Virus record (IMG/VR): IMGVR_UViG_3300034062_003964
Coordinates: 57,468-121,467 of that record
DNA from: a virus
Reading direction: 5' to 3' (one strand)
Length of the DNA stretch: 64,000 nt
Shown: piece by piece, positions 1,411 through 64,000 of the stretch
Layout: each line of letters starts with the position of its first letter
How positions within the stretch are numbered: the stretch's first letter is position 1
The notes under the pieces: generated by a model
Databases searched by the model: none
Told to the model about the DNA's origin: nothing
What the model saw: only the letters and a program-made list of their open reading frames with translations
Position numbers and translations under genes: made by a program

Positions 1411-1418
1411 AAAATATT

Positions 1419-7365: not shown

Positions 7366-7371
7366 TAAAAA

Positions 7372-10238: not shown

Positions 10239-10242
10239 GATT

Positions 10243-13269: not shown

Positions 13270-13276
13270 TAATTAA

Positions 13277-14926: not shown

Positions 14927-14929
14927 AAA

Positions 14930-15997: not shown

Positions 15998-16001
15998 TAT
16001 T

Positions 16002-46541: not shown

Positions 46542-47525
46542 TTATAATCCAAATCTGGATTTTTGTGCGTTATAGTTTTGAAGTATTTCTGATGCCGATA
46601 ATCCTCTAGTATAAATTCTAGCGATAGAAATATTTCCCGTTAAATATGTGTGTATACCAACAGCAGAACCTATAGTAATAGTTTCATTAGATGCGGTCCA
46701 AGGACCCGCAACGGTAGAGGACCCAATTGATGAACCATTTAAATAAATGGTATGGGAACTCCCTAATGTAGTGGCAGCAACATGATACCAAGTATTATAA
46801 CTTAAGACATTTGCTGGTTGTATCCCTACGTTATTTGTCCCATATCTTTGCCACAATAATTTTCGGTTTACGTCATACCATAAACCAAAAGTTCTATTAC
46901 CCGAAGGGTTGTTTCCTGTCCCAATAATACGAACCCAATCACTTGGCCCTGATGTAATGTAAATCCAACCTTCAACCGTCATATCACCTGTAAGTTGTGC
47001 TGATATTGCAGGTCCATTCACATAATCATTTGTTCCATCAAACACAATAGTACCTCCATTTGATGAACTATATGTGGGGTCATTTGTTAATGTTCCATTA
47101 TTTCCATTGTAAGATAAGTCACTCCAAGTTACTCCTGATTTTGGGTAAGATGGGACAAATCCGGCATCTAATAACATTGTTAACCCACTTGTTACAATAT
47201 TTTCATAATCTCTATTAACAACCATCGTTGTTGGATTTGTATTAAGGTGTGTAATTGCACTATATGTTGTGGAAATATTAACGCCACTATAAAAAGTTTC
47301 TGCCCACCTGATTAAATCAATATCACTTTCGGGTACTCTTATTGATGGACCATTTGCCGCTTTATTTTCATAGATTGTGTATCCACCTGCAGATGGAGTT
47401 ATACCATTCCAATGACCTGTAGTTGATGTTGGCCCCTTTGGTGTATCACCAACACCAATATACCAATTACCTTTTCGTAAAGATAACGTGTCTCCTGTTG
47501 TAGAATATTTTATAGTATTAGGCAT
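46542..47525 (-). CDS. LamG/concanavalin-A-like domain virion protein
   Basis: LDAG..SYP.SG.TW.DLS…FDGTNDY…WYHVAAT…IYLNG…YTRGLS.SEI.QNYNA. Confidence 0.85.
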   Translation of the reverse strand: MPNTIKYSTTGDTLSLRKGNWYIGVGDTPKGPTSTTGHWNGITPSAGGYTIYENKAANGPSIRVPESDIDLIRWAETFYSGVNISTTYSAITHLNTNPTTMVVNRDYENIVTSGLTMLLDAGFVPSYPKSGVTWSDLSYNGNNGTLTNDPTYSSSNGGTIVFDGTNDYVNGPAISAQLTGDMTVEGWIYITSGPSDWVRIIGTGNNPSGNRTFGLWYDVNRKLLWQRYGTNNVGIQPANVLSYNTWYHVAATTLGSSHTIYLNGSSIGSSTVAGPWTASNETITIGSAVGIHTYLTGNISIARIYTRGLSASEILQNYNAQKSRFGL

Positions 47526-47548: not shown

Positions 47549-48481
47549 TTAAATGATTTCTAATATCTTATTATAAACTTGAAGAACTGAAGGGTGACAT
47601 TCAAATGTTGGTTTATTTTCCAAACAATTAACTAATGGTGGTATTCCATGAATAGAACCCCACTCTCTAACTCCGTATTTAACATCAGATGCACAATTCA
47701 ATCCACATCCACCCATAACATAATGATATTTATATTCTTGTGAACCATTTCTAAATGGTGACCTAAATTCAGGATTAATGGAACTACCTAATTGGATAAT
47801 TTCTGCATCTGTTGTTCCTGCCAAATGTAATAATCCTGAATCCATAGTGACAAAACAAAGTGAATTTTGAATTAAATACCAAGTATCATCCAAACTAGTT
47901 TTATTTACCAAGTTCAAACCATTTTCAATTTCAAAATCAAATACAGGTTTATCAACATTTGACCCACCCGTTTCTGAGGAGTTTTTACCAACAGAAATGA
48001 CAGCAATACCTTTTTCATTTAATAGTTTGGTTAAAAATTTCCAATTATTTAAACTCCAAGTCCTTGAATTCCAATTTTGAACTGAGTGAATTAAAACATA
48101 TTTTTTAGGTAGGTCAGGTATCATCGGCGTGTATAATGGGTTGTAGTCTAAAGTCATTTCCTCTTTATTTAACATGAATCCCAAAGAAATTGCATGAAAT
48201 TGTCTGATGTCCATCGCGTTATGTTTATTACAAACACCATTATCTTTATATCCTATATCGAAAGTTTCAAAAATATCATAAGTTTCTTTTAATTCATCTC
48301 GATTAACATCACCATCAAAAATATTTTCAACATAAGGATTAGTGACAAATAGTTCAGGAACATTTGTAATAATTGAAACTTTTCTATTATACGACTTATA
48401 TAATTTTCTAATTGTTGGTGTTACACATAAGGTATCTCCTAACGCCCTACATCCTGTGATATCTAAACATATTTCTTTCAT
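47549..48481 (-). CDS. GT9-like (heptosyltransferase-fold) glycosyltransferase with Cys cluster
   Basis: LGDTLC.TP, FVTMDSGLLHLAG, CGLNC…C…FECHP. Confidence 0.8.
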   Translation of the reverse strand: MKEICLDITGCRALGDTLCVTPTIRKLYKSYNRKVSIITNVPELFVTNPYVENIFDGDVNRDELKETYDIFETFDIGYKDNGVCNKHNAMDIRQFHAISLGFMLNKEEMTLDYNPLYTPMIPDLPKKYVLIHSVQNWNSRTWSLNNWKFLTKLLNEKGIAVISVGKNSSETGGSNVDKPVFDFEIENGLNLVNKTSLDDTWYLIQNSLCFVTMDSGLLHLAGTTDAEIIQLGSSINPEFRSPFRNGSQEYKYHYVMGGCGLNCASDVKYGVREWGSIHGIPPLVNCLENKPTFECHPSVLQVYNKILEII

Positions 48482-48523: not shown

Positions 48524-49555
48524 TTAATAACCAAATCTTGATTTTTGTGCGTTGTAATTTTTAAGGACTTCAGCGTCCGATAATACTTTATTGTAAACTA
48601 AAAGTCTTGCAATATTACCCGGAAATGGAAATTGATTTGATGTATAATTACCTAAACGTAATCTACTACCTGAAGATGGTTGGTAAACTGAATCGGTGTA
48701 ATTTGAAGAGGACGTGTTGAATGTACCATTAACATAAATTTTTCCAGTAGCGAGTTGATTTTGTAAATCATACAATAAAGTGTAAGTAAAATTATACCAT
48801 ATGTTATTACTAAAAGTTGCGCCTGTTGTATATAAATTTCTTTGAGTTGTCGTACCACCTGTGGATGTACGGTATGTGACATGACATTTATTTATGTCTG
48901 AGCCGCTACCAGTCCCTCTAAATGCCATATATGGTAAAAAGTTACTCATCATCATATTAAAAATATTTCCATCAGAAGTCCTTTTAGCCCATATATCCCA
49001 AGTCATTCCCGATACCATAGTATATACATCATTACTAACAACCTCATCATCGGCACCATCAAACACTAATGAACCTCCCACTTCTGAAGAGTATGTTACC
49101 CCATTTAGTAAACTAAAAGTCAATGTATTATTACTATTAGCAACATTATAAAATGTTGTTCCTGACCTAGGATATGAAGGTGTGTAACCAGCATCTAAAC
49201 ATATAGATAAACCACTTGTAACAATATCCTCATAATCCCTATTTAGAACAACAATATCTGATTGTGATTCTAAATACACGATACTATCAGTAACTCCTGT
49301 AACATTTCCACCTAAAGCTTTCGCCAATGTTATAAATTCACTATCGTTATTTGGTCTAAAAGTAGAAGGACCTAAAGTTGCCTTATTTTGATGAATAGTA
49401 AACCCACTTGTTACGGGAGTGATACTTTGGTAGAATCCTGTAACTGAAGTCGGACCATATGTAACATCACTATTTACTCCGATTAAAAAGTTTCCCGCTT
49501 TAATGGTACCCGCAGTAAGTGATGTGGAATATTTTATTTTATTAGGGAATGGCAT
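48524..49555 (-). CDS. LamG/concanavalin-A-like domain virion protein (paralog of 46542-47525)
   Basis: Shared NxIKYST N-terminus, NRDYE.IVTSGL, LDAG..PSYP, NYNAQKSRFG end. Confidence 0.85.
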   Translation of the reverse strand: MPFPNKIKYSTSLTAGTIKAGNFLIGVNSDVTYGPTSVTGFYQSITPVTSGFTIHQNKATLGPSTFRPNNDSEFITLAKALGGNVTGVTDSIVYLESQSDIVVLNRDYEDIVTSGLSICLDAGYTPSYPRSGTTFYNVANSNNTLTFSLLNGVTYSSEVGGSLVFDGADDEVVSNDVYTMVSGMTWDIWAKRTSDGNIFNMMMSNFLPYMAFRGTGSGSDINKCHVTYRTSTGGTTTQRNLYTTGATFSNNIWYNFTYTLLYDLQNQLATGKIYVNGTFNTSSSNYTDSVYQPSSGSRLRLGNYTSNQFPFPGNIARLLVYNKVLSDAEVLKNYNAQKSRFGY

Positions 49556-49606
49556 TTTATTCTATAAATACTTCATTTACAATTCCAAATTATTATTATT
49601 TAATAA

Positions 49607-52600
49607 ATGGAAAATACGAAAAAATTTGATAGGTCATTTCTACTATATGGGGATAAAAATTATTTACCAATCATAAAAAAAACAATCAAGAGCATTAGGT
49701 CTTTTTCAGATTTACCAATATTTGTTTACTTATTAAATCACCATGAAGAAATAAATGAAAAAAATGTCTTTGTTAAAAAATGGTTTTGTACTATAAGAAA
49801 TCAAAACGAAGAACTTTTTAATGTCGAAGATAACGGTAACTTTTATATAGATAGAAATAGGGTTGCAATTTATGATACTTTAATTCAAAGACCTGCAATC
49901 ACAAAAGATGTTTTAGAGAATTTTTCAAATATAGTATGTTATTTAGATGCTGACACAACCTGTTTACCAAATTTAGAAAAGATATTTGATTTATATCCTA
50001 ATGGTGAGGTTGTTCCATATTTTACAAAAGGTGTTTATGATTTTATGTATTGGGATGGTGTTGGCGGTATTGATGATGATTTAACCAAAACTTTAGAACA
50101 CCCCACTTGTGAATTATATAATATCGACCAATCATTTAGATACCAATCAGGATACAGACAAACGGGTTATTTTCTTGCAGGTCAAAACACAATACCATTT
50201 ATAACTGAATGGTTTGATATGTGTTTAAATCCAATTATCAAAGCAAATACGGTTAAGTACGCAGCATATCACGAAGAGACAATAGTTAATTGTTTATTAT
50301 GGAAACACAAAGTTTCAAGAGGATTACCAAGTGTTTATGTTAATGGAAGTTTAGAAACAATTGATTTAATAAATGACAATACTACCTTTACAGGTGAACC
50401 AAGACACATAAAAGATTGGTTATTAGTTCCATCAAAAAGAGAAGAATTATTCTTTATACATGGTGAAAAAAGATTAAACATTATTGATAATATGATTGAA
50501 AAATTAAGAACAGGTGTATACTACAAAGATAAAAAAATCGCAGATGCAGGTTATGTAATAAATTTACCTCATCGAACAGATAGAAAAGAAAGTGTAATCA
50601 AACTACTTAATGAATTAGAAATTACAGGATATGAATTTATAGACGGAGTAATTTTAGATGACCCAAAATATAGAAAAATGGGTTGTAATGCCGCTTACGT
50701 AAATCTATTTTCAAAATTCTTATCAACTGACGCACAAAATGTAATAGTGTTTGAGGATGATATTAAATTAATGAATGGAGTATCGAAAAATGAAATAAAT
50801 GAAATTTTTGATAATTGGGTTGAAACCGTAAATCATTACGATGTTGTTGGATTAGGCGTTAAATTATTACCGAGAAGTGAAATTAAATTGAATGGTAAAA
50901 CTCACGGCTCATTTGAAGAAATGTTGTGTACCCAATCTTTATTTTACAAAAGACATTTTGTTGAGCATTGGATGTCAATTATGACAGAATTTTTAACACC
51001 AACAAGTCCATTTTATATGTGTGCTGTTGATATGTTTTTAAATGATAGTTCATGTGAAACTTACAGATTTATACATAATGATAGACACAAGAAATTTGAT
51101 TTTGGTATCACCGTACCAATGTTATTTACACAAGGTCCAAGTTTTTCGGACTCAGAAGGTAGAGACCAAGATTATGAAGATGATATGGAACTTGCGTATT
51201 GGCAAAGTTTAAATAAAAATAAAACAGATAAAAGAATGAAATTATTATACGTTACACCACACCTTTCAACGGGTGGAATGCCTCAATTTCTATTGAAGAG
51301 AATTAAAGAATTACAAAATTATAAAGATGAAATAGAAATTTTTGTTGTTGAGTTTTCGAGGTTTAGTCACACGTATGTGGTTCAAAGAGACCAAATTATA
51401 AATTTATTAGATGATGAACATTTTATTAATTTAAGTATTTTAGGTGAAGAAAACCAAGAACAAAAGAAAGAAAGATTAATAGACATTATAAAAGAAAAAA
51501 ATATAGACGTAGTTCATTTTGAAGAAATCAGTGAAGCATTTGAAAGTTTTAACCGAGTTTCAAAATCATTACTTAATTCAATTTACACAAACGATAGAAC
51601 ATGGAAAATTGTCGAGTCTTGTCATAATAATTGGTTTAGCCCTAATAATAGAAAACTACATCCAGATGCGTATTCATTAGTGACACCATTTCATTTAGAA
51701 AAAACTTTTAAAAACGAACCATCATATAAAGAGGTTCACGTTTATCCCTTAGAAGATTTAGTGTCAGAAATTAAAGAAAAACATCAAATTTATAATGATG
51801 AATTTAGTGTTCCTTTAATAGAAAAAATTGCAAAAAGAGAAAAGTTAGGTTTAGACCCATTTAAAACTCATGTATTAAATGTTGGTCTTTGGACATCAGG
51901 AAAAAATCAGGGTGAGGGAGTTGAAATTGCAAGACAGGTTTGGGAAAAAAATAAAGACGTTCATTTTCATTTTATAGGAAATCAGGCGCCCAATTTTGAA
52001 GATTATTGGAAACCAATAATGGAAAATTTACCACCAAATGTTACCGTTTGGTTTGAAAGAAATGACGTTTCTGATTTTATGACGGCTTGTGATATTTTTA
52101 TGTTTAATTCAATTAATGAGTGCAACCCATTAGTTTTAAGGGAGGCGATTAGTTATGGAATGAAAGTAATGTCAAGAAATCTTCCACAATATGTTGGTAT
52201 GTTTGATGGATATATCACTGAAATTGAAAATGACGATATTAATTCATCAACCAATAAACTTTTATCTTTAATTGAAAGTAAAGGAACATATAAATTAAAT
52301 GAGACTTTTGATTTAGGTAAATCATTACGTGATTTTTATTACAAAATTTTAAAAATGGACTTTATAAAAAATAACCAAATAAATAATGATTACACATTCT
52401 CAAATCATTATATTGTAAATCCTTATTTAGAAATAAATGGGACAACAGATAATAAACTAAACGTTAAGTTTTTTGATAATGACCAACTTTCTTATGAAAG
52501 TGACCTATCAATTAATACTTGGGTTAAAATGAACAAGGAGTATTATACAAATTGGAGAGTAGAGGTAAGAGAAAATAATGAATTAATTTATCAAAATACA

Positions 52601-54190
52601 AATGACCACACAAACAAACGGGTATTAATCACATTTGGCTCAAAATCATTGGGCGATACTTTATCTTGGTTTCCTTATGTTGAGGAATTTAGAAAAAAAC
52701 ATAATTGCCATGTGGTAGTATCAACGTTTATGAACTACCTTTTTAAAGGTCAATATCCAGAAATAGAATTTGTTGAACCAGGAAGTGTTGTATATGATAT
52801 TAATGCACAATATAATATAGGTTGGTTTTATAAAGAAGATGGTGAGTTGGATTTGAATAAACATCCTCGTGATTTTAAACCGTTACCATTACAACAAACC
52901 GCATCTGATATTTTAGGTTTAGAATACACTGAAATAAGACCAATATTAAATTTACCAAAAGTTGAAAAAAAGAAGAAAGTAGGTATTGGTTTTCATTCAA
53001 CCGCACAATCAAAATATTGGAACAACAAAAAGGGGTGGCAACAAGTTGTTGATTATTTAAATAATCTTGGGTATGAGTGTATGATATACTCAAAAGAAGG
53101 TGATGGATATATGGGTAATTTTTACCCAAAAGGTGTCACACAATATAAAGGAGGTTCAGTTCAAGAAGTCATAGATGATTTATCAACATGTGAATTTTTT
53201 ATTGGATTAGGTTCAGGACTTTCTTGGTTAGCATGGGCTTGTGAATTACCCGTTGTGTTAATTTCAGGATTTAGTGAAAAATGGTCTGAAACCACATTAG
53301 ACACATATAGAGTTATTAATGAAAACGTATGTCATGGCTGTTTTAATTGGGATAGATTAGATGCTGGTGATTGGAATTGGTGTCCAAAACACAAAGGAAC
53401 ATCAAGACAATTTGAATGTACAAAAGAGATTACATCTGAAATGGTTATTGAACAAATTGAAAAAATCATTAATAAAGAAAAACCTGAAGTTGTGGTTGTT
53501 GAAGAAAAAGTTATTAACAAACCTGTATTTGATTGGGGTTGGATGGATACGGATAGGGAATTAGCCGAATTTCATAAGGGAGCAATTACTGAAGAAATTT
53601 TTAATAATAATATTTATGAAAAATTCTTTGAGGTTGAAGAAGGTGATGTGGTTTTAGATGTTGGTGCAAGTATCGGACCATTCACATATTCTATTTTACA
53701 TAAAAAACCTAAACATGTATTTTGCGTAGAACCAAGTGAAAGTGAATTTACAACACTTATTAAAAACACAATAGGTAATCCTGTCACTCATATTAATAAA
53801 GGTCTTTCAGATACAAATGGTATAGTTGAAAGTGACCAATTGTTTGGTGGGGAATCACATATGGAGTCTATGACGTTTGATAAGTTGGTTAATCTTTACG
53901 GATTAAATAAAATTGACTTTTTAAAAACTGACTGCGAGGGAGGAGAGTATGAAATTTTTAAACAAGAAAACATACAATTTATAAAAGAAAACATTAAAAA
54001 AATTGCTGGTGAATGGCATCTAAGAAGTCAAAAAGATAAAGTTAGATTTAGATATTTTAGAGATAACATTTTACCGCAATTTGAAAACTACGAAGTCTAT
54101 TCTGTTGATGGTGTTAATATAAAGTGGGATTTATGGAATGAACACTTTATAGAATTTTACCAAGAAGTTATCTTTTATATTAGAAATTAA
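49607..54190 (+). CDS. Five-domain glycosylation protein: GT-A, GT25-like, GT4, AAH/TibC-type O-heptosyltransferase, FkbM methyltransferase
   Basis: YLDAD; YVINLPHRTDR…FEDD; PHLSTGG…ECNPLVLREA; SLGDTLSWFPYVEEFRKKH…FIGLGSGLSWLAWA…VLISGFS…CHGC…WCP…FECTK; VLDVGASIG…LKTDCEGGE. Confidence 0.85.
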   Translation: MENTKKFDRSFLLYGDKNYLPIIKKTIKSIRSFSDLPIFVYLLNHHEEINEKNVFVKKWFCTIRNQNEELFNVEDNGNFYIDRNRVAIYDTLIQRPAITKDVLENFSNIVCYLDADTTCLPNLEKIFDLYPNGEVVPYFTKGVYDFMYWDGVGGIDDDLTKTLEHPTCELYNIDQSFRYQSGYRQTGYFLAGQNTIPFITEWFDMCLNPIIKANTVKYAAYHEETIVNCLLWKHKVSRGLPSVYVNGSLETIDLINDNTTFTGEPRHIKDWLLVPSKREELFFIHGEKRLNIIDNMIEKLRTGVYYKDKKIADAGYVINLPHRTDRKESVIKLLNELEITGYEFIDGVILDDPKYRKMGCNAAYVNLFSKFLSTDAQNVIVFEDDIKLMNGVSKNEINEIFDNWVETVNHYDVVGLGVKLLPRSEIKLNGKTHGSFEEMLCTQSLFYKRHFVEHWMSIMTEFLTPTSPFYMCAVDMFLNDSSCETYRFIHNDRHKKFDFGITVPMLFTQGPSFSDSEGRDQDYEDDMELAYWQSLNKNKTDKRMKLLYVTPHLSTGGMPQFLLKRIKELQNYKDEIEIFVVEFSRFSHTYVVQRDQIINLLDDEHFINLSILGEENQEQKKERLIDIIKEKNIDVVHFEEISEAFESFNRVSKSLLNSIYTNDRTWKIVESCHNNWFSPNNRKLHPDAYSLVTPFHLEKTFKNEPSYKEVHVYPLEDLVSEIKEKHQIYNDEFSVPLIEKIAKREKLGLDPFKTHVLNVGLWTSGKNQGEGVEIARQVWEKNKDVHFHFIGNQAPNFEDYWKPIMENLPPNVTVWFERNDVSDFMTACDIFMFNSINECNPLVLREAISYGMKVMSRNLPQYVGMFDGYITEIENDDINSSTNKLLSLIESKGTYKLNETFDLGKSLRDFYYKILKMDFIKNNQINNDYTFSNHYIVNPYLEINGTTDNKLNVKFFDNDQLSYESDLSINTWVKMNKEYYTNWRVEVRENNELIYQNTNDHTNKRVLITFGSKSLGDTLSWFPYVEEFRKKHNCHVVVSTFMNYLFKGQYPEIEFVEPGSVVYDINAQYNIGWFYKEDGELDLNKHPRDFKPLPLQQTASDILGLEYTEIRPILNLPKVEKKKKVGIGFHSTAQSKYWNNKKGWQQVVDYLNNLGYECMIYSKEGDGYMGNFYPKGVTQYKGGSVQEVIDDLSTCEFFIGLGSGLSWLAWACELPVVLISGFSEKWSETTLDTYRVINENVCHGCFNWDRLDAGDWNWCPKHKGTSRQFECTKEITSEMVIEQIEKIINKEKPEVVVVEEKVINKPVFDWGWMDTDRELAEFHKGAITEEIFNNNIYEKFFEVEEGDVVLDVGASIGPFTYSILHKKPKHVFCVEPSESEFTTLIKNTIGNPVTHINKGLSDTNGIVESDQLFGGESHMESMTFDKLVNLYGLNKIDFLKTDCEGGEYEIFKQENIQFIKENIKKIAGEWHLRSQKDKVRFRYFRDNILPQFENYEVYSVDGVNIKWDLWNEHFIEFYQEVIFYIRN

Positions 54191-54208
54191 TTATTGTTTT
54201 AAACAATC

Positions 54209-57200
54209 TTACGTACTTACTGATTCAATCACCGCAAATCGTATTACAATTGCTTCACTTAAATTACCTGCCGTAACATTTCTCACTGAAATGACTGCAG
54301 AACCAGCACCTGGAAATGCGTTTAAATTGTAAGACGCACTTGAACCAACAGAGGTGTGTTGAAGAACTACAATGTCGGTAGCTGAAATCACACTATTAGT
54401 TAAAGTAAATGATACCGTTGTGTTGGCATTCAATGTCGCACCAGTCATAGTGATTATTCCTGTTGGTCTGTTTAGGGTAACTCCTGTTGCCTTAGTTCCG
54501 GTTTGAGAGACCGAACCTCCAGCACCTGTACTATAACCTAATGTTTGACTACTACCTATTACATGTAAATTACCGACAGTTGTTGTTGTTCCACCTGCAA
54601 ACCTTAAACCGGCATTTTGTCCGCCAGCACCAACTATTAAATTTTCACCGGCACTTGAAACCATTGCGGTATCACCAAGAACGCTGTTGTTGTTACCACC
54701 TGATGCTCCTACATACGGATAGAATAAAACACCTTCGTCATTATTATTATCAATACGAGCGGCAATTGCGTTTGTAACTCTTGCCCCTGAAGTGACATCC
54801 AAAGGATAAGTAGGTGCTCCAGCACTATTAATTTGTAAGAAGTTGGTAATTGCGGCATCTCCTGCTGAAAAAATTGAAAATCTATTGTTTGTACCTAAGA
54901 CTGCACTAGCGCCATAAGAAATCGTAAATGCCTGATTTGTATTATCAACTCCAAGAGCAAATGAGTTGGCTGCGGTTGATGGTATAAATCTCATAAATGG
55001 GTCCTGAGTACCTCCAACGGTATCACTCAATGACATATTAGGGAATGGACTATCTTTAGTTAAAGTCATAGTTACACCATCGAATTGTGCACCAATTTCT
55101 CCTTGTATGGTGTTTGCGGTACCCGTCGCAGTGACTATGTAATTATTTTGATTATTATTAATTACCATACTAAGACCTGAACTACCTGATGTTCCGTTAG
55201 TTCCTGATGTTCCATTTGTACCACTCGTACCACTTGAACCGTCACGACCATTAAGACCACTGGACCCTGAAGAACCACTGGACCCTGAAGAACCATTAGA
55301 ACCCGAAGAACCTGAAGAACCGCTAGTTCCTGAACTACCATTTAATCCATTATAAACCCAAGATATTGTGTAAGTATTATCATTAGCTAAAGAACCATTA
55401 CCAACGACATTGGATACGGTAAAGGTGTAAACAGGTGATGAGAATGTTATATTACTAACAGTCCAAATACCAATTATGTTATTTGACCCAACTTTAGTAA
55501 TCTGTAAATACACAGGATTTCCTAATGCCTGTATTGTATCAATACCTGAAAACCAAGTATTATAACTAGTCGAATTAATGTCTAGATTATTAATGTCAAT
55601 AGAGGTTATTGAGGATATTGTAGATGAGTTTGTATCAAAATATCCTGGAAACCCAGCTAAAGATTTACGATAATTCCATCTTCCTGAATTTGACCCATCA
55701 TTACCATCGGTTCCACTTCCACCATTTAAACCTGAAGAACCGGATGTTCCGTTTGAACCTGAAGAACCGGATGTTCCATTAGTTCCGTTTGTACCATTTG
55801 CTCCATTTAAACCTGAAGAACCGGATGTTCCGTTTGAACCTGAAGAACCGGATGTTCCATTAGTTCCGTTTGTACCATTTAAACCTGAAGAACCGGATGT
55901 CCCGTTTGAACCTGAAGAACCTGATGTTCCATTAGTTCCGTTAGTTCCATTAGCACCATTTAAACCTGAAGAACCTGATGTCCCGTTTGAACCTGAGCTT
56001 CCTGATGTTCCGTTAGTACCGTTAGTTCCGTTTGTCCCATTTAAACCTGAAGAACCGCTTGTACCTGCAGAACCTGATGAGCCAGATGTTCCGCTTGAAC
56101 CAGATGAACCTGAGGTTCCGGCAGACCCACTAGAACCTGAAGAACCTGAGCTACCACTTGTACCAGATGAACCTGATGTTCCTGAAGACCCACTTGACCC
56201 TGAAGTTCCACTTGAACCGTTAGTACCGTTTGTACCATTCAATCCGCTTGACCCTGATGTTCCACTTGAACCATTAGTACCATTTGTACCTGAAGAACCA
56301 TTAGTACCATTTGTACCATTTCTACCTGAAGAACCTGAACTACCGCTAGTACCCGAAGAACCTGAACTACCGCTAGTCCCACTAATACCCGAAGAACCGC
56401 TTGAGCCTGATGTGCCACTTGAGCCTGAACTACCACTAGTGCCTGATGAACCCGAAGAACCTGAAGTCCCGCTTGAACCATTAGTACCATTTATACCTGA
56501 AGAACCACTAGAACCTGATGTTCCATTTATTCCTGAACTTCCTGAAGACCCACTAGTTCCTGAAGAACCTGAAGACCCACTAGTTCCAGATGAACCATTA
56601 GAACCTGAAGTTCCGTTAGTACCATTTGTTCCGTTTGCTCCATTCAATCCGCTTGAGCCTGAAGAACCTGAAGTTCCGTTTGTTCCGTTTGTTCCGTTAG
56701 TACCATTTGTTCCGTTTGCTCCATTTAAACCTGAAGAACCGGATGTCCCGTTTGAACCTGAAGAACCTGATGTTCCATTAGTTCCGTTAGTACCATTTGC
56801 ACCATTTAAACCACTTGAACCTGAAGTTCCATTAGTACCATTAGTTCCGTTAGTACCATTTCTACCTGATGAACCTGACGTTCCTGATGACCCGCTAGTG
56901 CCTGAACTACCACTTGAACCCGATGAACCACTAGTTCCGTTAGTACCATTTGTTCCGTTAGCTCCGTTTAAACCTGAAGAACCTGATGTTCCGTTAGTTC
57001 CGTTAGTACCGTTAGCTCCGTTTAAACCTGATGAACCTGATGAACCACTAGTACCGTTTGTTCCTGAAGTCCCATTTGTGCCGCTAGTACCATTAGTTCC
57101 ACTTGTTCCGTTGGTACCATTTGTTCCGTTTGTTCCGTTTCTACCTGAAGAACCACTTGACCCTGATGTCCCACTCGAACCCGAAGAACCACTAGTACCT

Positions 57201-60200
57201 GAACTTCCTGAAGAACCTGATGTCCCATTAGTTCCTGATGTGCCATTTATACCTGACGAACCTGAACTTCCATTTGTACCATTAGTACCCGAAGTTCCGT
57301 TAGTACCATTTGTACCTGATATACCTGACGACCCTGAATCTCCTTTCATACCTGAAGAACCAGAGCTACCGCTAGACCCTGACGTACCATTTGTTCCTGA
57401 TGTACCATTTGTCCCACTAGTACCACTTGAACCCGAACTACCACTACTTCCACTTGTACCGTTAGTACCTGATGTTCCATTCGTACCCGAAGTACCACTT
57501 GAACCTGAAGAACCGGATGTACCATTAGTACCTGATGTTCCGTTGGTACCGTTTGTCCCACTAGTACCATTTATTCCTGAAGAACCACTAGACCCTGATG
57601 TTCCACTAGAACCCGATGTTCCATTTGTTCCTGAAGTTCCGTTAGTGCCGCTAGTACCATTCGTTCCTGACGTTCCGTTTGTACCATTAGTCCCTGAAGT
57701 TCCATTTGTACCCGAGCTTCCACTTGTGCCGTTTGTTCCTGAAGAACCATTAGTCCCACTTGTTCCATTAGTTCCGTTGGTACCTGATGTTCCATTAGTA
57801 CCGTTTGTACCATTTCTACCACTTGAACCAGAAGTACCTGAACTTCCTGAAGAACCGCTTGAACCTGAAGACCCACTAGTTCCTGATGAACCATTTGTTC
57901 CTGAAGTACCATTAGTTCCCGATGTACCGTTTGTTCCTGAAGAACCTGAACTTCCACTTGAGCCTGATGTTCCATTAGTGCCGCTTGTACCATTTGTTCC
58001 TGAAGTCCCATTAGTACCACTTGTACCTGAAGAACCTGAACTACCACTAGTACCGTTTGTTCCTGACGTTCCGTTGGTGCCGCTCGTACCGTTTGTCCCA
58101 TTAGTTCCTGACGTTCCGTTTGTACCACTCGTACCGTTAGTACCTGATGTTCCATTTATTCCTGAAGAACCTGAACTACCACTTGAGCCGCTAGTTCCGT
58201 TTGTTCCCGACGTTCCATTAGAACCTGAAGAACCGCTAGTCCCTGATGTCCCACTTGAACCTGAAGAACCGCTAGTCCCTGAAGAACCTGAACTACCACT
58301 TGACCCTGAAGTTCCGTTAGTGCCGCTAGTTCCTGAACTACCAGAAGAACCACTTGTACCATTTGTACCGCTAGTCCCGTTGGTTCCATTTATACCACTT
58401 GAACCTGAAGTACCGTTTGTTCCGCTAGTTCCGTTAGTTCCTGAGGTTCCATTTGTTCCTGAAGTCCCGCTAGAACCACTACTTCCGCTAGTACCATTAG
58501 TCCCCGATGTTCCGTTAGTACCTGAAGTTCCATTCGTACCGTTTGTACCATTTATCCCTGAAGAGCCACTAGACCCTGATGTTCCATTTGTTCCCGAAGT
58601 TCCATTAGTTCCGTTTGTTCCTGATGTTCCATTAGTACCCGAAGTACCGTTAGTTCCTGAGGTTCCATTTGTACCATTTGTTCCACTTGTTCCGTTAGTA
58701 CCATTTGTTCCGTTTCTACCTGAAGAACCACTTGTTCCACTTGAACCTGATGAGCCAGAAGTACCACTACTTCCTGAAGAACCTGACGTGCCGCTACTTC
58801 CTGAAGAACCACTAGTACCATTAGTTCCTGACGTTCCGTTTGTACCACTCGTACCGTTAGTACCTGAAGTACCACTTGAGCCTGATGTTCCGTTTGTTCC
58901 ACTTGTACCATTAGTACCATTAGTACCACTTGTTCCGTTACTACCGCTTGAACCCGATGTTCCACTGCTCCCTGAAGAACCATTAGACCCCGATGTCCCA
59001 CTACTACCGCTTGAACCTGATGTACCGTTTGTTCCACTCGTACCCGAAGCACCACTTACTCCACTTGTTCCACTTGAACCTGATGTTCCCGATGACCCCG
59101 AACTGCCGCTAGACCCTGAAGTTCCATTAGTACCGTTAGTGCCGCTAGTACCACTAGACCCCGAAGTTCCATTTGTTCCTGAAGTCCCATTAGTACCATT
59201 TGTTCCTGAAGTTCCGTTAGTTCCTGAAGTACCGTTTGTTCCACTTGAACCTGACGAACCACTACTTCCGCTAGTACCATTTGTACCTGATGTTCCGTTA
59301 GTTCCTGAAGTCCCATTTGTTCCGCTAGTCCCTGAAGAGCCAGATGAACCTGAAGTTCCGTTGGTTCCAGATGTCCCGTTTGTTCCGCTACTACCCGAAG
59401 TTCCATTTGTACCCGAAGTTCCATTTGTACCCGAAGTTCCATTTGTCCCATTGGTTCCGTTTCTACCTGATGAACCCGAAGTTCCAGAAGAACCCGATGA
59501 ACCACTAGACCCTGAACTACCACTAGTGCCTGATGAACCACTTGTTCCCGAACTCCCTGATGAACCACTTGTTCCACTTGAACCTGAACTACCACTAGAC
59601 CCCGAAGTTCCGTTAGTCCCACTCGTTCCATTAGTACCTGAAGTACCTGAACTACCGCTAGACCCTGATGTTCCATTTGTTCCGCTAGTCCCTGAAGAAC
59701 CATTTGTTCCGCTAGTGCCCGAAGAACCAGATGAACCTGAAGTGCCGTTCGTTCCAGATGTCCCGTTTGTTCCACTTGTACCGTTAGTACCTGATGTCCC
59801 GTTTGTGCCCGATGTTCCATTTGTACCACTTGAACCTGAAGTACCGTTCGTTCCACTAGTACCATTTGTTCCTGAAGTACCATTGGTACCTGAACTTCCT
59901 GAAGAACCACTTGTACCATTAGTTCCTGAACTTCCTGAAGAGCCACTAGTACCATTGGTACCTGATGTCCCGTTTGTCCCTGAAGTGCCGTTTGTGCCGC
60001 TACTACCCGAAGTCCCATTAGTACCTGATGTTCCGTTAGTCCCATTAGTACCTGATGTTCCGTTTGTTCCTGAAGTTCCATTCGTTCCATTTCTACCTGA
60101 TGAACCTGATGAGCCACTTGTACCTGAAGAACCACTAGACCCTGACGAACCTGATGTTCCACTTGAACCCGAAGAACCTGACGTACCACTACTTCCTGAA

Positions 60201-63200
60201 GAGCCACTAGACCCTGAACTACCACTAGTACCTGATGAACCGTTAGTTCCTGAAGTACCACTAGACCCCGACGTACCATTTGTTCCACTAGTACCGTTTG
60301 TCCCCGACGTACCACTTGAACCTGAACTACCTGAAGAGCCCGATGTGCCGTTTGTTCCTGACGTACCATTAGTTCCTGAAGACCCACTTGAACCTGATGT
60401 TCCATTAGTACCTGAAGACCCACTAGACCCTGATGTGCCATTTGTTCCTGATGTTCCACTTGAACCTGAGCTTCCTGATGTGCCGTTTGTTCCACTAGTA
60501 CCATTTGTTCCGCTAGTACCACTTGAACCACTACTTCCGCTAGTACCATTAGTCCCCGATGTTCCGTTAGTACCACTCGTACCATTTGTTCCTGAAGTTC
60601 CGTTAGTTCCACTTGAACCTGACGAACCACTACTTCCACTAGTGCCGTTTGTTCCTGAAGTTCCATTAGTTCCACTAGTACCACTTGAACCCGATGAACC
60701 ACTACTTCCGCTAGTACCATTTGTACCTGAACTTCCTGATGAACCACTAGTACCATTTGTACCACTTGTACCGCTTGAACCTGATGAACCACTTGTTCCT
60801 GAACTACCACTTGAACCACTTGTTCCACTTGAACCATTTGTTCCGTTAGTCCCTGAAGTCCCCGAACTTCCTGATGAACCGCTAGTACCATTTGTTCCTG
60901 ATGTTCCATTTACACCTGAAAGACCACTAGTTCCTGAAGAACCACTTGACCCTGATGTTCCGTTTGTTCCGTTAGTACCATTAGTTCCATTTCTACCTGA
61001 TGAACCGCTTGTTCCCGAACTTCCACTTGAGCCGGACGTACCGTTAGTACCACTAGTACCTGAGCTCCCCGATGAACCGCTAGAGCCTGATGTTCCATTT
61101 GTACCTGAAGTCCCGTTAGTACCTGATAACCCACTACTCCCACTTGAGCCCGATGTTCCATTTGTTCCGCTAGTACCATTAGTTCCTGACGAGCCGTTTG
61201 AACCTGAACTTCCTGAAGAACCTGACGTTCCGTTTGTTCCTGATGTACCATTAGTACCGCTAGTTCCTGATGAACCGCTTGAACCCGAAGACCCACTTGT
61301 CCCTGATGAACCGCTCGTACCGTTTGTTCCTGAGGAACCTGAACTACCCGATGTACCGTTCGTTCCAGATGTACCTGAACTACCTGAAGAACCACTAGAC
61401 CCTGATGTTCCATTTGTTCCGCTTGTTCCATTCGTACCCGAAGTCCCGTTAGTTCCATTTATTCCTGAAGAGCCGCTAGACCCTGATGTTCCGTTTGTTC
61501 CGTTAGTTCCTGAAGTACCATTAGTTCCGCTCGTACCATTTGTACCTGAAGAACCACTTGAGCCAGATGTTCCGTTTGTTCCTGAAGTTCCGTTTGTTCC
61601 TGAAGTTCCGTTAGTCCCACTAGTACCGCTTGAGCCTGATGAACCACTACTTCCACTAGTACCATTTGTACCTGAACTACCACTAGACCCTGAAGACCCA
61701 CTTGTTCCTGAACTACCGTTTGTACCGGATGTTCCACTTGAACCTGAGCTTCCTGATGTACCGTTTGTTCCACTAGTACCATTTGTTCCTGATGTCCCAT
61801 TAGTTCCGCTTGAACCTGAGCTACCGCTACTTCCTGAAGAACCACTAGTTCCATTTGTCCCCGAAGTCCCGTTAGTACCTGATGTTCCATTTGTTCCGCT
61901 AGTCCCTGAAGAGCCAGATGAACCTGAAGTACCGTTGGTTCCAGATGTTCCGTTTGTACCATTAGTCCCCGATGTTCCATTAGTTCCGCTAGTTCCTGAC
62001 GAACCATTTGAACCTGAGCTTCCCGATGTTCCATTAGTTCCGCTAGTTCCTGACGAACCATTTGAACCTGAGCTTCCTGATGTTCCATTTGTGCCGCTAG
62101 TCCCTGACGAACCATTTGAACCTGAGCTTCCTGATGTTCCATTTGTGCCGCTAGTCCCTGACGAACCATTTGAACCTGAGCTTCCTGATGTTCCATTTGT
62201 GCCGCTAGTCCCATTTGTTCCGTTAGTACCTGAAGTCCCGTTAGTACCTGATGACCCACTACTCCCACTTGAGCCCGATGTTCCATTTGTTCCGTTTGAA
62301 CCCGAGATACCCGAAGACCCTGATGTACCATTCGTTCCACTTGAGCCTGAAGACCCACTTGTCCCTGATGAACCGCTCGTACCGCTACTACCACTAGACC
62401 CTGAAGAACCTGATGTTCCTGAGCTTCCGCTAGTTCCATTTGTTCCTGACGTTCCGTTAGTACCATTTGTTCCACTAGTTCCTGACGAACCACTCGACCC
62501 TGAACTTCCTGAAGTACCATTTGTTCCGCTAGTTCCGTTAGTACCTGATGTTCCGTTGGAACCTGAAGACCCACTTGTCCCGTTAGTACCTGAAGTACCA
62601 TTTGTTCCACTAGTACCGCTTGAACCTGAAGTTCCATTTGTACCGTTAGTACCTGATGTTCCGTTGGAACCTGAAGACCCACTTGTCCCGTTAGTACCAT
62701 TTGTTCCGCTTGAGCCTGAGCTTCCTGATGACCCATTTGTACCCGATGTTCCGTTAGTGCCGCTAGACCCTGATGAACCACTTGTTCCATTAGTCCCTGA
62801 TGTGCCGTTTGTACCAGATGTTCCTGAGGAGCCTGAACTACCCGATGTTCCGTTAGTTCCTGAAGTACCGTTCGTTCCAGATGTGCCTGAACTACCTGAA
62901 GAACCACTAGACCCTGATGTTCCGTTTGTTCCATTAGTACCTGAAGTACCATTTGTACCTGAAGAACCACTTGAGCCAGATGTTCCGTTTGTTCCTGAAG
63001 TTCCGTTAGTTCCTGATGTTCCGTTACTTCCACTTGAACCGCTAGTACCATTAGTACCTGAAGTACCATTTGTACCACTAGTCCCGTTTGTTCCTGAAGT
63101 CCCCGAACTTCCAGAAGAACCACTTGTACCACTTGAGCCTGAAGTACCTGATGAACCATTCGTACCTGAAGTCCCGTTTGTTCCGGATGTACCATTTACA

Positions 63201-64000
63201 CCTGATGAACCTGAAGTTCCGTTAGTACCATTAGTTCCTGATGTTCCATTACTTCCACTTGAACCGCTAGTACCATTAGTTCCTGACGTTCCATTTGTTC
63301 CGCTCGTTCCACTTGAACCTGAAGTTCCATTTGTACCGTTAGTGCCGCTAGTTCCGTTAGTTCCGTTCGTACCTGAGGTTCCATTAGTACCGTTCGTACC
63401 ATTAGTACCGCTAGTTCCTGAAGAACCACTTGTTCCATTAATTACACCTAACGTAGTTTGACCATATGAATAATGAGTTGTACCTTCGGTTACGAAAGTA
63501 ATTGTATGTGATTGATTTGAGGTATTTGTAGCTCGAACTTTAACAAATATCCTATCTGTTGTATTGATTGAAAATCCTCCTTGAAATCCATCAGATAATA
63601 CCATTGATGGGTTTGGTGAATTTGTTGTTACAGGTGCTGGGTCTGTTGAAAATAATAAAGTTTCAGTCCCACCTGTTGTTCTTGAATAAACTTCACAGAA
63701 TATATCAAAACTTGCATTATTGTTTTCTTTATACGCGTGTAAGAAGAAAGACCAAATTCCCGCAGGTATGGTTGATACATTCGGATAAGTTGAGGGTGTT
63801 AAATATGATTGAATAGTTGATGTTACACCATTCGCAATAGTAACCGTAACTGTTTGTTGCGACCCTGATGTCGGTATTGGTGAAAATTCTTTATAAGGGG
63901 TTTGTGTTACTGATTCGTTAAAGAAATAAACAGCACCACCTGAAATACCATTAACACCGCTAGTACCGTTCGTACCATTAGTTCCCGATGTTCCATTAGT
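54209..64000 (-). CDS. Giant Gly-X-Y (GTS/GTN/GSS) repeat fibre protein, 5' partial (>3260 aa)
   Basis: Frame stays open from 63604 to 64000 (another globular segment, then more GTN/GTS repeats); non-repetitive beta-rich C-terminal region typical of fibre tips. Confidence 0.85.
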   Translation of the reverse strand, partial: TNGTSGTNGTNGTSGVNGISGGAVYFFNESVTQTPYKEFSPIPTSGSQQTVTVTIANGVTSTIQSYLTPSTYPNVSTIPAGIWSFFLHAYKENNNASFDIFCEVYSRTTGGTETLLFSTDPAPVTTNSPNPSMVLSDGFQGGFSINTTDRIFVKVRATNTSNQSHTITFVTEGTTHYSYGQTTLGVINGTSGSSGTSGTNGTNGTNGTSGTNGTNGTSGTNGTNGTSGSSGTSGTNGTSGTNGTSGSSGSNGTSGTNGTNGTSGSSGVNGTSGTNGTSGTNGSSGTSGSSGTSGSSGSSGTSGTNGTSGTNGTSGTNGTSGSSGSNGTSGTNGTSGTNGTSGSSGSSGTNGTSGTNGTNGTSGSSGSSGSSGTSGTNGTSGTNGTSGSSGSSGTSGTNGTSGTNGTSGSSGSSGTNGTSGTNGSSGSSGSSGTNGTNGTSGSSGSNGTSGTNGTNGTSGSSGTSGTNGTSGTNGTSGSSGSNGTSGTNGTSGTNGTSGSSGSSGSSGTSGTNGTNGTSGTNGTSGSSGTSGSSGSSGSSGTSGSSGTSGSSGSSGTNGTSGSSGISGSNGTNGTSGSSGSSGSSGTNGTSGTNGTNGTSGTNGTSGSSGSNGSSGTSGTNGTSGSSGSNGSSGTSGTNGTSGSSGSNGSSGTSGTNGTSGSSGSNGSSGTSGTNGTSGTNGTNGTSGTNGTSGSSGSSGTSGTNGTSGTNGTSGTNGTSGSSGSSGSSGSSGTNGTSGTNGTSGTNGTSGSSGSSGTSGTNGSSGTSGSSGSSGSSGTNGTSGSSGSSGSSGTSGTNGTSGTNGTSGTNGTSGSSGSSGTNGTSGTNGTSGTNGTNGTSGSSGSSGINGTNGTSGTNGTSGTNGTSGSSGSSGSSGTSGTNGTSGSSGSSGTNGTSGSSGTSGSSGSSGSSGTSGTNGTSGTNGTSGSSGSSGSNGSSGTNGTSGTNGTSGSSGSSGLSGTNGTSGTNGTSGSSGSSGSSGTSGTNGTSGSSGSSGTSGSSGRNGTNGTNGTNGTSGSSGSSGTSGLSGVNGTSGTNGTSGSSGSSGTSGTNGTNGSSGTSGSSGSSGTSGSSGSSGTSGTNGTSGSSGSSGTNGTSGSSGSSGSSGTSGTNGTSGTNGTSGSSGSSGSSGTNGTSGTNGTSGTNGTSGTNGTSGSSGSSGTSGTNGTSGTNGTSGSSGSSGTSGTNGTSGSSGSSGTNGTSGSSGSSGTNGTSGTNGTSGSSGSSGSSGTSGTNGTSGTNGTSGSSGTSGTNGSSGTSGSSGSSGSSGSSGTSGSSGSSGTSGSSGSSGSSGTSGSSGSSGRNGTNGTSGTNGTSGTNGTNGTSGTNGTSGSSGTNGTSGTNGTSGTNGTSGSSGSSGTNGTSGSSGSSGTNGTSGTNGTSGTNGTSGSSGTNGTSGTNGTSGTNGTSGTNGTSGTNGTSGSSGSSGTSGTNGSSGTSGTNGTSGSSGSSGTSGTNGTSGTNGTSGSSGSSGSSGTSGSSGSSGTSGSSGTSGSSGSSGSSGSSGTSGSSGRNGTNGTNGTSGTNGTSGTNGTSGSSGTNGTSGTNGTSGSSGSSGTSGTNGTSGTNGTSGTNGTSGSSGSSGSSGTNGTSGTNGTSGTNGTNGTSGTNGTSGSSGTSGTNGTNGTSGSSGSSGSSGTSGSSGTSGVSGASGTSGTNGTSGSSGSSGTSGSNGSSGSSGTSGSSGSNGTSGTNGTNGTSGTNGTSGSSGTSGTNGTSGTNGTSGTNGTSGSSGSSGTSGSSGSSGTSGSSGSSGTSGSSGRNGTNGTNGTSGTNGTNGTSGTNGTSGTNGTSGTNGTNGTSGTNGTSGSSGSSGINGTNGTNGTSGTNGTSGTNGTSGSSGSSGTSGTNGTSGTNGTSGTNGTSGSSGINGTNGTSGTNGTSGSSGSSGTSGTNGTSGSSGSSGSSGTSGSSGSSGTSGTSGSSGSNGTSGTNGTSGSSGSSGSSGINGTSGTNGTSGTNGTSGTNGTNGTSGTNGTSGTNGTSGSSGSSGTSGTNGTSGTNGTSGTNGTSGSSGSSGSSGTNGTSGTNGTSGTNGSSGTSGSSGSSGSSGSSGTSGSSGRNGTNGTNGTSGTNGTNGTSGTNGSSGTNGTSGSSGTNGTSGTNGTNGTSGTNGTSGTNGTSGTNGTSGSSGTSGSSGSSGINGTSGTNGTNGTSGTNGTSGSSGSSGTSGTNGTSGTNGTSGSSGSSGSSGTSGTNGTSGTNGTSGSSGSSGSSGMKGDSGSSGISGTNGTNGTSGTNGTNGSSGSSGINGTSGTNGTSGSSGSSGTSGSSGSSGTSGSSGSSGRNGTNGTNGTNGTSGTNGTSGTNGTSGTNGTSGSSGSSGLNGANGTNGTNGTSGSSGLNGANGTNGTNGTSGSSGSSGSSGTSGSSGTSGSSGRNGTNGTNGTNGTSGSSGLNGANGTNGTNGTSGSSGSNGTSGSSGLNGANGTNGTNGTNGTNGTSGSSGSSGLNGANGTNGTNGTSGSNGSSGTSGSSGSSGTSGSSGSSGINGTSGSSGSSGINGTNGSSGTSGSSGSSGTSGSSGSSGTSGSSGSSGISGTSGSSGSSGTSGSSGSSGRNGTNGTNGSSGTNGTNGSSGTSGSSGLNGTNGTNGSSGTSGSSGSSGTSGSSGTSGSSGSSGSSGSAGTSGSSGSSGTSGSSGSAGTSGSSGLNGTNGTNGTNGTSGSSGSNGTSGSSGLNGANGTNGTNGTSGSSGSNGTSGSSGLNGTNGTNGTSGSSGSNGTSGSSGLNGANGTNGTNGTSGSSGSNGTSGSSGLNGGSGTDGNDGSNSGRWNYRKSLAGFPGYFDTNSSTISSITSIDINNLDINSTSYNTWFSGIDTIQALGNPVYLQITKVGSNNIIGIWTVSNITFSSPVYTFTVSNVVGNGSLANDNTYTISWVYNGLNGSSGTSGSSGSSGSNGSSGSSGSSGSSGLNGRDGSSGTSGTNGTSGTNGTSGSSGLSMVINNNQNNYIVTATGTANTIQGEIGAQFDGVTMTLTKDSPFPNMSLSDTVGGTQDPFMRFIPSTAANSFALGVDNTNQAFTISYGASAVLGTNNRFSIFSAGDAAITNFLQINSAGAPTYPLDVTSGARVTNAIAARIDNNNDEGVLFYPYVGASGGNNNSVLGDTAMVSSAGENLIVGAGGQNAGLRFAGGTTTTVGNLHVIGSSQTLGYSTGAGGSVSQTGTKATGVTLNRPTGIITMTGATLNANTTVSFTLTNSVISATDIVVLQHTSVGSSASYNLNAFPGAGSAVISVRNVTAGNLSEAIVIRFAVIESVST
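55689..63436 (-). repeat. About 860 consecutive Gly-X-Y codon triplets (9-nt period, synonymously diversified)
   Basis: Translation is G-[TS]-[SN] almost throughout; count estimated as span/9. Confidence 0.9.

Follow-up and report, generated by a model that had tools for sequence, protein, structure and literature searches.

Recurrent pairing of a TibC-like protein O-glycosyltransferase domain with Ser/Thr-rich collagen-like repeats suggests a heavily glycosylated fibre in a large T4-like phage

We analyzed a 64-kb stretch of viral DNA (hereafter, the window) that forms the final part of one viral contig of 121,467 bp (IMG/VR record IMGVR_UViG_3300034062_003964, our record G000; CheckV completeness 31%). 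In this window, a gene for a five-domain glycosylation enzyme of 1527 amino acids (aa) lies beside a gene for a giant collagen-like fibre protein. The enzyme contains a domain of the Aah/TibC family, and a distinct clade of such TibC-like domains is paired with proteins carrying G-[ST]-[ST] repeats. This functional link is well supported by sequence comparison, and its recurrence in many phages and some bacteria suggests a heavily sugar-coated fibre. Our best reading, to which we give a probability of about 0.6, is that the enzyme O-glycosylates the repeats of the adjacent fibre, which would be its direct acceptor, and also elaborates the resulting glycan. The coordinates of all features are collected in Table 1.

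The original prediction had placed an AAH/TibC-type domain with a Cys iron finger in the 1527-aa protein, and this assignment was upheld by the family profile, the structural database and the key residues. In a hidden Markov model search against the autotransporter O-heptosyltransferase family, aa 953–1287 matched TIGR04414 (hepto_Aah_TibC) with an E-value of 7.8e-85 and 285.1 bits (curated cut-off, 200). A phmmer search of the PDB retrieved TibC (4rap/4rb4; E 1e-62), the alignment spanning TibC residues 41–386 of 406. An AlphaFold (AF2) model of the domain (pLDDT 84.7, pTM 0.86) had TibC 4rap as its best Foldseek match, with TM scores of 0.82/0.80 across 380 columns, and the second-best fold, WaaC, reached TM scores of only 0.46–0.55. 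No match to the domain (0) was obtained in PHROGs. Judged from both profile and model, the presence of a true Aah/TibC-family domain in the enzyme is beyond doubt.

We then compared functional residues with those described in the TibC structural study (PMC4358343). In that account, Asp110 is the catalytic base of TibC, Cys339/342/358/370 form the iron finger, and Thr226, Lys230 and Trp305 make phosphate and sugar contacts to the donor. Arg286 hydrogen-bonds adenine N1, which is the authors' stated basis of ADP specificity, and the choice between D,D- and L,D-heptose is set by Pro300 in TibC and Ser294 in AAH. TibC assembles as a ring through which the substrate threads, and the dodecamer is built by a beta-hairpin thumb in which two hydrophobic residues, Phe265 and Val266, follow one another (PMC4358343). 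Across 45 distinct phage versions of the domain, the residues aligned with the catalytic base (D1017), the iron-finger cysteines (C1242/C1245/C1259/C1271; iron binding is predicted) and the donor contacts (T1132, K1136 and W1207, matching Thr226, Lys230 and Trp305) were invariant (45/45 in each case). The thumb pair is Tyr-Met here (Y in 44 and F in one of the 45; M in all 45). The position of Arg286 is occupied by V1188 and was never Arg in the phage domains (V 31, T 7, L 6, A 1); it was Arg in 55 of 79 bacterial rows, with V, I, L, M, T or A in the rows nearest to the phages. At the position of Pro300, which TibC uses for a main-chain contact, the enzyme has G1202, and the clade has G in 29, S in 15 and A in one.

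The convergent neighbour, previously noted as a protein of more than 3260 aa with over a thousand Ser/Thr residues lying 18 nucleotides (nt) away, was confirmed as such. The enzyme stop codon ends at 54190 and the opposing stop codon starts at 54209. The open reading frame (ORF) is cut off where the window and the contig end, and the 3263 aa that are present include 953 Ser and 611 Thr (1564 together, 48%), 948 Gly and 363 Asn (Ser 29%, Gly 29%, Thr 19%, Asn 11%). Its repeats had been described as SG-rich. Nearly all their residues are Gly, Ser, Thr or Asn, and instead of a loose SG type they make up a strict Gly-X-Y array, whose 883 triplets fall into three blocks, one of them with 857 triplets in an unbroken run. 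The most frequent triplets are GTS (285), GSS (283) and GTN (242). Position X is Thr in 527 or Ser in 305 of the 883 triplets (832), position Y is Ser in 578 or Asn in 301 (879), and Pro is absent among the listed X and Y residues. A 600-aa piece of the protein matched Pfam Collagen (PF01391) with an E-value of 1.1e-88 and 291 bits. At the DNA level, the repeat periods are all multiples of 9, and the repeats are only 66–97% identical. The array is therefore old and diverged, and the Gly period nevertheless stays unbroken over 857 triplets, which indicates selection on the triplet.

The collagen triple helix rises by ~0.29 nm per residue, and a collagen-type triple helix, if formed, would give a rod ~0.7–0.8 μm long. 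Pro and/or charged residues stabilise bacterial triple helices. Because both are so few in the fibre (22 Pro, and 65 Lys, Arg, Asp and Glu together, of 3263 residues), the array may form either a triple helix or a disordered, mucin-like chain. The fibre also contains 308 N-x-S/T sequons, which arise because an Asn at Y precedes the Ser/Thr at X of the next triplet (GTN-GT); no N-glycosyltransferase family turned up in the ORFs scanned.

Tail-fibre and collagen-like minor tail families of PHROG were also matched. No Pfam family was found for the whole 319-aa C-terminal domain; its final ~120 aa matched phrog_18251 (function not assigned; E 3.9e-31). Another 37 long proteins end in this C-terminal module (46–63% identity), among them 11 with a T7 tail-fibre N-terminal domain (PF03906) and 6 with a pectate-lyase-type domain (PF12708). 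A close relative, G001 (219,553 bp, 75% complete), carries a complete fibre homologue (P0003, 3196 aa) with a 125-aa N-terminal part and a like array. Its C-terminus differs, being a Gly-rich (Gly_rich_2) domain, and no Pfam or PHROG family was found for its N-terminal 130 aa. By sequence, this modular build, in which a rod joins a constant base to a tip that can be exchanged, is that of a phage fibre.

To place the pairing in a comparative setting, we used 193 confirmed viral-contig relatives of the TibC-like domain, of which 80 loci were kept, and asked whether the ±10 kb around the anchor gene contained an ORF with 45 aa or more of G-X-Y. Merging loci at least 95% identical left 43 TibC-anchored clusters, along with 63 anchored on the portal gene and 53 on GDP-mannose dehydratase as controls. 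A G-X-Y ORF was present at 52 of 80 TibC-anchored loci (28/43 clusters), compared with 3/80 portal loci (2/63 clusters) and 0/80 GDP-mannose-dehydratase loci (0/53 clusters). Fisher's test on 28/43 versus 2/116 gave p = 5e-18, a value that overstates independence as the loci are related. In the repeats near the enzyme, X and Y are 50–97% Ser+Thr, and Pro is at most 3% in 27 of the 28 clusters (18% in L073). The gap between enzyme and repeat is at most 200 nt in 9 of 43 clusters and at most 1000 nt in 13. Some lineages have a convergent layout and others a co-directional one, and enzyme architectures range from a stand-alone protein of 378 aa up to a fused one of 1535 aa. Some of the misses are due to contig ends that cut the loci: the contigs of L013 and L014 stop 1–85 nt past the enzyme gene, and those of L001 and L051 stop inside a Gly-rich ORF resembling the fibre tip of G001.

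As fibre modules are not what the control loci represent, we added a test on whole records, searching 50 control phage records, each 50 kb or longer, for a Ser/Thr-type G-X-Y DNA pattern. A TibC-family gene was found in 4 of the 50, and all 4 carried the repeat pattern. The pattern also occurred in 6 of the 46 records without the enzyme. In 5 of these 6, the contig end cuts the repeat gene on its 3' side, where the enzyme gene stands in the window; the sixth had only 3 pattern matches. The check that the original prediction had proposed, on co-occurrence and adjacency of the two genes across phage genomes, thus came out in its favour.

The pairing extends to bacteria. A profile of 12 phage domains retrieved 582 relatives in bacterial and metagenome-assembled genome (MAG) contigs, and 80 loci were kept. 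G-X-Y ORFs were found at 16 of the 32 closest relatives, compared with 0 of 48 more distant ones, mostly from Lentisphaeria and Negativicutes. At a lower threshold, 6 more close relatives had (G-T-S/A)n tracts in an adjacent gene. Neighbours in Burkholderiales MAGs are small lipoproteins with a signal peptide, a lipobox and then a G-T-S tail, and those in methanotrophs (L262, L264, L265) are secreted proteins that carry a (GTS)n linker at the N-terminus. These lipoproteins and secreted proteins look like simple natural substrates, and they have nothing besides the repeat in common with phage fibres. In a FastTree phylogeny of 124 domains (the outgroup was not monophyletic and the rooting is approximate), all 44 repeat-associated rows fell in one 73-row clade (support 100, stem 0.88), and none of the other 51 rows was repeat-associated. 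Since the pairing also occurs in bacteria, where no fibre module is present, the common denominator of the clade is the G-[ST]-[ST] repeat and not the fibre-module location. A (G-T-S/A)n tract is the only notable feature of the neighbours on five MAG contigs (L276, L273, L271, L282, L284) and of those in the three methanotroph loci.

The pairing was also found in a cultured phage, Microcystis phage Mel-JY01 (PP395634.1). Its TibC-like domain (50.6% identity) is C-terminal in a 1226-aa protein annotated 'methyltransferase FkbM'. About 1.7 kb upstream of the enzyme, a plus-strand open frame (2–3049, >1016 aa) encodes a Ser/Thr-rich G-X-Y protein. This frame runs off the start of the record and is absent from the deposited annotation. 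The GenBank ORFs at 1–651 and 739–2298 lie on the wrong strand, the latter reading as P-x-x ('PEVP') repeats. A literature search, with subscription journals outside its scope, returned no paper on Mel-JY01.

With these elements, the following mechanism can be proposed. The 1527-aa protein would act as a cytoplasmic protein-glycosylation assembly line. Its TibC-like domain would add the first sugar to Ser/Thr hydroxyls in the G-[ST]-[STN] triplets of the fibre. The GT8-like, GT25 and GT4 glycosyltransferase (GT) domains would then lengthen this first sugar, and the FkbM domain would methylate it. In the window protein, the GT8-like match stands below the Pfam cut-off (Table 1); in a homologue of the enzyme, P0006 (79% identical), the GT8 score is 28 bits, above the PF01501 cut-off. 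The GT25 match scored 33.3 bits with the isolated piece and 27.7 bits with the whole protein. The product would be a fibre of great length and dense glycosylation that bears a variable domain at its distal tip. The glycan would likely stiffen or stabilise a Pro-poor triple helix, shield it from protease, or serve in adhesion. Of the proposed enzyme–fibre coupling, the comparative association stood; glycosylation itself we infer, and likewise the fibre as acceptor, the extension of the same glycan by the other domains and the role of the glycan.

The nature of the donor sugar is a separate question. The original prediction started from the use of ADP-heptose by AAH/TibC and pointed to a gmhA gene in the same window, but it called the donor uncertain, as HldE was absent from the window. 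The gene in question encodes a GmhA-like SIS protein; GmhA models are its best matches, and all of them scored below their cut-offs. It is flanked by genes for a short-chain dehydrogenase/reductase (SDR) and a NeuB-like synthase, close to those for a PseF-like cytidylyltransferase, an aminotransferase and an MptE-like (DUF115) protein. Such surroundings suit a nonulosonic-acid route more than the synthesis of ADP-heptose. The SIS protein may be a PtmF-like isomerase of a legionaminic-acid-type route, and the cluster may be comparable to Campylobacter PtmF/PtmA and Maf-type flagellin glycosyltransferases. As a mark of a phage ADP-heptose pathway, the 'gmhA' gene was rejected on account of its sub-cut-off score, its SDR/NeuB-like context and the lack of a heptose kinase or nucleotidyltransferase. 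The absence of HldE held beyond the window, as HldE/RfaE domains I and II, NTP_transferase and GHMP kinase were found neither in the 121,467-bp contig nor in the 219,553-bp relative. With Arg286 replaced by Val and never Arg in the 45 phage domains, no activation genes and a nonulosonic-acid-type cluster, ADP-heptose as donor is not supported, and heptose as the sugar appears doubtful. Because Arg286 is lost, a different nucleotide sugar would be about as likely a donor as heptose drawn from the ADP-heptose pool of the host. A possible supply is the sugar-nucleotide and glycosyltransferase cluster at the start of the window. Besides the genes around the SIS gene, it encodes a GT11/GT10 fucosyltransferase fusion, a methyltransferase, a GDP-fucose-synthase-like protein, DegT, GDP-mannose dehydratase, GT4 and GT2, with PhoH in its middle.

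Several findings weigh against the fibre as the acceptor of the enzyme. The known acceptors of TibC and AAH are Ser residues in beta-helical strand-loop-strand autotransporter motifs, not G-X-Y. In 15 of the 43 viral clusters, the 10 kb around the enzyme contained no ORF reaching 45 aa of G-X-Y. A true exception among these 15 is a subclade of 8 clusters, in which stand-alone enzymes of 382–386 aa lie ~3 kb from a giant fibre of ~2000–2470 aa. The one read and checked for repeats, P0004 of L029, is Ser/Thr-rich and not collagen-like, with an S74-type intramolecular chaperone C-terminus, and its sole such tract is a short GTS run. In a reverse test on 41 viral records chosen solely for the repeat pattern, only 11 had a TibC match (11/29 of those with at least two pattern matches and 0/12 of those with one), and among repeat-bearing records at least 90% complete the proportion was only 3/8. 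The enzyme is thus nearly always found with the repeat, and the repeat is often found without the enzyme. In addition, neither the portal nor the GDP-mannose-dehydratase loci are fibre modules, so that the signal within ±10 kb could partly reflect shared location. In G001, a 545-aa gene (L244:18240–19877), for which no Pfam or PHROG family was found, stands between the fibre and the five-domain enzyme. Finally, absences of genes from G000 (31%) and G001 (75%) are weak evidence, both records being incomplete.

One alternative is that the enzyme and the sugar cluster remodel the host surface (the O-chain of lipopolysaccharide (LPS), the capsule or an adhesin), for example against superinfection, with the fibre a mere neighbour in a hypervariable host-recognition region. 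Such remodelling is the published reading for pelagimyophages, aquatic T4-like phages with glycosyltransferases interleaved with tail-fibre genes and with collagen repeats in structural proteins; the accessible part of that study assigns the enzymes to modification of the host O-chain and mentions neither TibC-type enzymes nor a link to collagen repeats (PMC7029224). GT8, GT25 and GT9 are classically LPS enzymes, and the window holds full GDP-fucose-type and nonulosonic-acid-type pathways. Against this, TibC-family enzymes with such a fold and iron finger are protein O-glycosyltransferases, and the pairing with G-[ST]-[ST] repeats holds for whole records and in bacteria, where no fibre module is present. 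Furthermore, searches of G000 and G001 for lipid-carrier machinery (Bac_transf, Glycos_transf_4, Wzx) returned neither an initiating phosphoglycosyl transferase nor a flippase. This would be consistent with direct cytoplasmic protein glycosylation, although the machinery of the host could be used. On balance, we consider host remodelling unlikely.

We give a similarly low weight to the idea that the TibC-like domain targets other virion proteins, instead of the fibre or in addition to it, such as the LamG_3 and PA14 proteins or fibres generally. The divergent neighbours contain 22–27% Ser+Thr and are virion-structural-like, the stand-alone enzymes of the 8 clusters described above lie near a non-collagen giant fibre, and in Mel-JY01 a Ser-rich 'structural protein' stands between the repeat gene and the enzyme. 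Nevertheless, whatever the architecture, orientation or host, the one recurrent partner is the G-[ST]-[ST] repeat, of which a short GTS tract is present even in the 'non-collagen' fibre P0004, and the bacterial partners resemble phage fibres in nothing else. That the domain is mainly a non-catalytic ring, serving as an assembly or threading factor for a fibre whose repeats stay unglycosylated, seems very improbable. The threading of the substrate through the TibC ring (PMC4358343) and the apparent conservation of the thumb pair and the iron finger, which build the ring, would suit such a role. The invariance of the catalytic base and of the phosphate- and sugar-binding residues in 45/45 domains would be unexpected without catalysis, and four further sugar-modifying domains are fused to the TibC-like one.

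Glycosylation of the adjacent fibre can also be set beside known systems. The domain resembles TibC/AAH (the BAHT family) in its family score, N-terminal beta-barrel, GT-B-like core, probable thumb and iron finger, and in the position of its gene next to one for a giant repetitive Ser-rich surface protein, for which cytoplasmic hyper-modification is proposed. It differs in that the TibC/AAH partner is a beta-helical autotransporter passenger, such as TibA or AIDA-I, whereas here a collagen-type G-X-Y array takes this place; the window ORFs that were scanned gave no match to an autotransporter family. Arg286 is replaced by V, T, L or A, and Pro300 (TibC) or Ser294 (AAH) by Gly, Ser or Ala. The domain here is phage-encoded and fused to four other sugar-modifying domains, and the phage type stands on a long branch separate from the Arg-bearing bacterial members. 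Of the 'new system' first proposed, a probable new acceptor class is upheld, but not a wholly new system, as the enzymes form a distinct clade of a known family that is also found in bacteria. BclA of the Bacillus exosporium is a collagen-like G-X-Thr surface filament that is O-glycosylated on the repeat Thr; its repeats are short and Pro-rich (GPT), and its glycosyltransferases are not known to be related to TibC. In the fibre described here, by contrast, Pro is nearly absent (22/3263) and the array is ~2650 aa. Mimivirus has its own sugar-nucleotide pathways and glycosyltransferases, decorated long surface fibrils and collagen-like proteins. It is a eukaryotic virus with other enzymes and acceptors, and no TibC-family enzyme is known from it. 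We are also aware of very few phages in which glycosylation of virion proteins by phage-encoded enzymes is documented. Mycobacteriophages provide a case, in which phage glycosyltransferases modify the virion's own proteins (Freeman et al. 2023, cited in PMC12619734). The targets there are the C-termini of capsid and tail-tube subunits, in phages of Actinobacteria, with other enzyme families and no repeat acceptor. Our literature search, with supplements and subscription journals outside its scope, returned nothing linking TibC-type enzymes to phage fibres or collagen-like repeats.

Table 1. Features of the window, with positions counted from its first letter.
Feature	Position	Strand	Basis
Five-domain glycosylation enzyme P0001, 1527 aa	49607..54190	+	ORF and domain matches
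GT8-like domain, aa 14-196	49646..50194	+	Pfam PF01501 E 9.4e-5, 22.5 bits (cut-off 24.3)
GT25 domain, core match, aa 358-393	50678..50785	+	Pfam PF01755, cut-off 24
GT4-type (Glycos_transf_1) domain, aa 742-892	51830..52282	+	PF00534 E 6.3e-10, 39.3 bits; PF13692 34.4 bits
Aah/TibC-family protein O-glycosyltransferase domain, aa 953-1287	52463..53467	+	NCBIfam TIGR04414
FkbM-family methyltransferase domain, aa 1348-1479	53648..54043	+	TIGR01444 53.3 bits (cut-off 37.7); PF05050 E 1e-8
Giant collagen-like fibre protein P0002, >3263 aa	54209..64000	-	N-terminus past contig end
C-terminal non-repeat domain of fibre, 319 aa, putative distal tip	54212..55168	-	phrog_18251 on last ~120 aa
Non-repeat insert of fibre, 125 aa	55349..55723	-	no Pfam or PHROG family
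Main G-X-Y block of fibre, 857 triplets, aa 189-2759	55724..63436	-	triplet count; Pfam Collagen
Non-repeat insert between G-X-Y blocks, 168 aa	63437..63940	-	no Pfam or PHROG family
LamG_3 (concanavalin-like) protein, virion-structural-like, divergent neighbour of enzyme	48524..49555	-	PF13385 E 1.6e-12; phrog_8510
Second GT9-like glycosyltransferase, 310 aa, between the two LamG_3 genes	47549..48481	-	PF01075 E 2.1e-13
Paralogous LamG_3 protein	46542..47525	-	Pfam/PHROG
PA14/GLEYA carbohydrate-binding-type protein	45405..46256	-	PF10528 E 5.3e-19; PF07691 E 3.5e-14
Pyrimidine-dimer DNA glycosylase (denV-like), amid fibre-region genes	44883-45425		
M42/M20-like peptidase homologue	40961-42019		weak matches
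ClpB/Hsp104-type double AAA+ chaperone, 678 aa	38878-40914		
T4-type large terminase	32559-34334	-	
gp20 portal	30706-32520	-	
Prohead protease	28188-28901	-	
gp23 capsid protein	24454-26250	-	
GmhA-like SIS protein, 191 aa	6790-7365	+	best match gmhA, 180 bits (cut-off 209)
Sugar-nucleotide and glycosyltransferase cluster, possible donor supply	1..17560	+	

The remaining genes place the source phage, as far as sequence comparison goes, as a large, distant T4-like phage. The closest cultured relatives of its capsid protein, from Microcystis phage Mel-JY01 and the Flavobacterium 'immuto' phages, are only ~42% identical. G+C content is 27–36% across 1–54000 and climbs to 38–48% across the repeat gene. 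No terminal repeats were found on the 121,467-bp contig, and its opposite end (1–4600 of the contig, outside the window) cuts a large minus-strand ORF of >1533 aa. Upstream of the enzyme, the divergent LamG_3 protein matched phrog_8510 ('virion structural protein') with an E-value of 3.4e-14, and the NCBIfam heptosyltransferase I/II models gave the GT9-like protein 35 bits at most, far under their cut-offs. No Pfam family was found for three large ORFs (666, 521 and 492 aa) at 17948–23209, between the sugar cluster and the capsid genes. Around the enzyme (49300–54600), promoter-like sites showed no excess over shuffled sequence (23 versus 30.8 expected), and 3 terminator-like sites against 1.7 were likewise taken as no excess.

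More tentatively, a broader scenario may be considered, which we regard as possible and clearly less probable than glycosylation of the fibre as such. In this scenario, the TibC-like clade would have switched its acceptor from the autotransporter beta-helix to G-[Ser/Thr]-[Ser/Thr/Asn], and its donor would probably have switched as well, because the adenine-reading Arg is lost. Phage assembly lines would make sub-micron glycosylated fibres from Pro-free collagen-like chains of up to ~2600 residues, with sugar replacing stabilisation by Pro or hydroxyproline. The (G-T-S)n linkers of bacterial lipoproteins and secreted proteins would also be glycosylated, and the repeat and enzyme together would form a general, portable 'glyco-collagen' module common to phages and bacteria.

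The many glycosyltransferases that aquatic T4-like phages encode in their fibre regions are now read as modifiers of host LPS, and an enzyme with a recognisable acceptor repeat offers a concrete and testable alternative. Fibre glycosylation, if true, would give an enzyme family whose structure is well understood a new class of acceptor, and would explain how Pro-free G-X-Y arrays could make stable rods. For cytoplasmic glycosylation of proteins, the enzyme domain and the short repeat could also be used as a simple tag-and-enzyme pair. Fibre glycosylation would further make probable glycoproteins of hundreds of phage fibres in metagenomes, which would bear on the host range of these phages, on the adhesion of their particles and on encounter rates in dilute waters.

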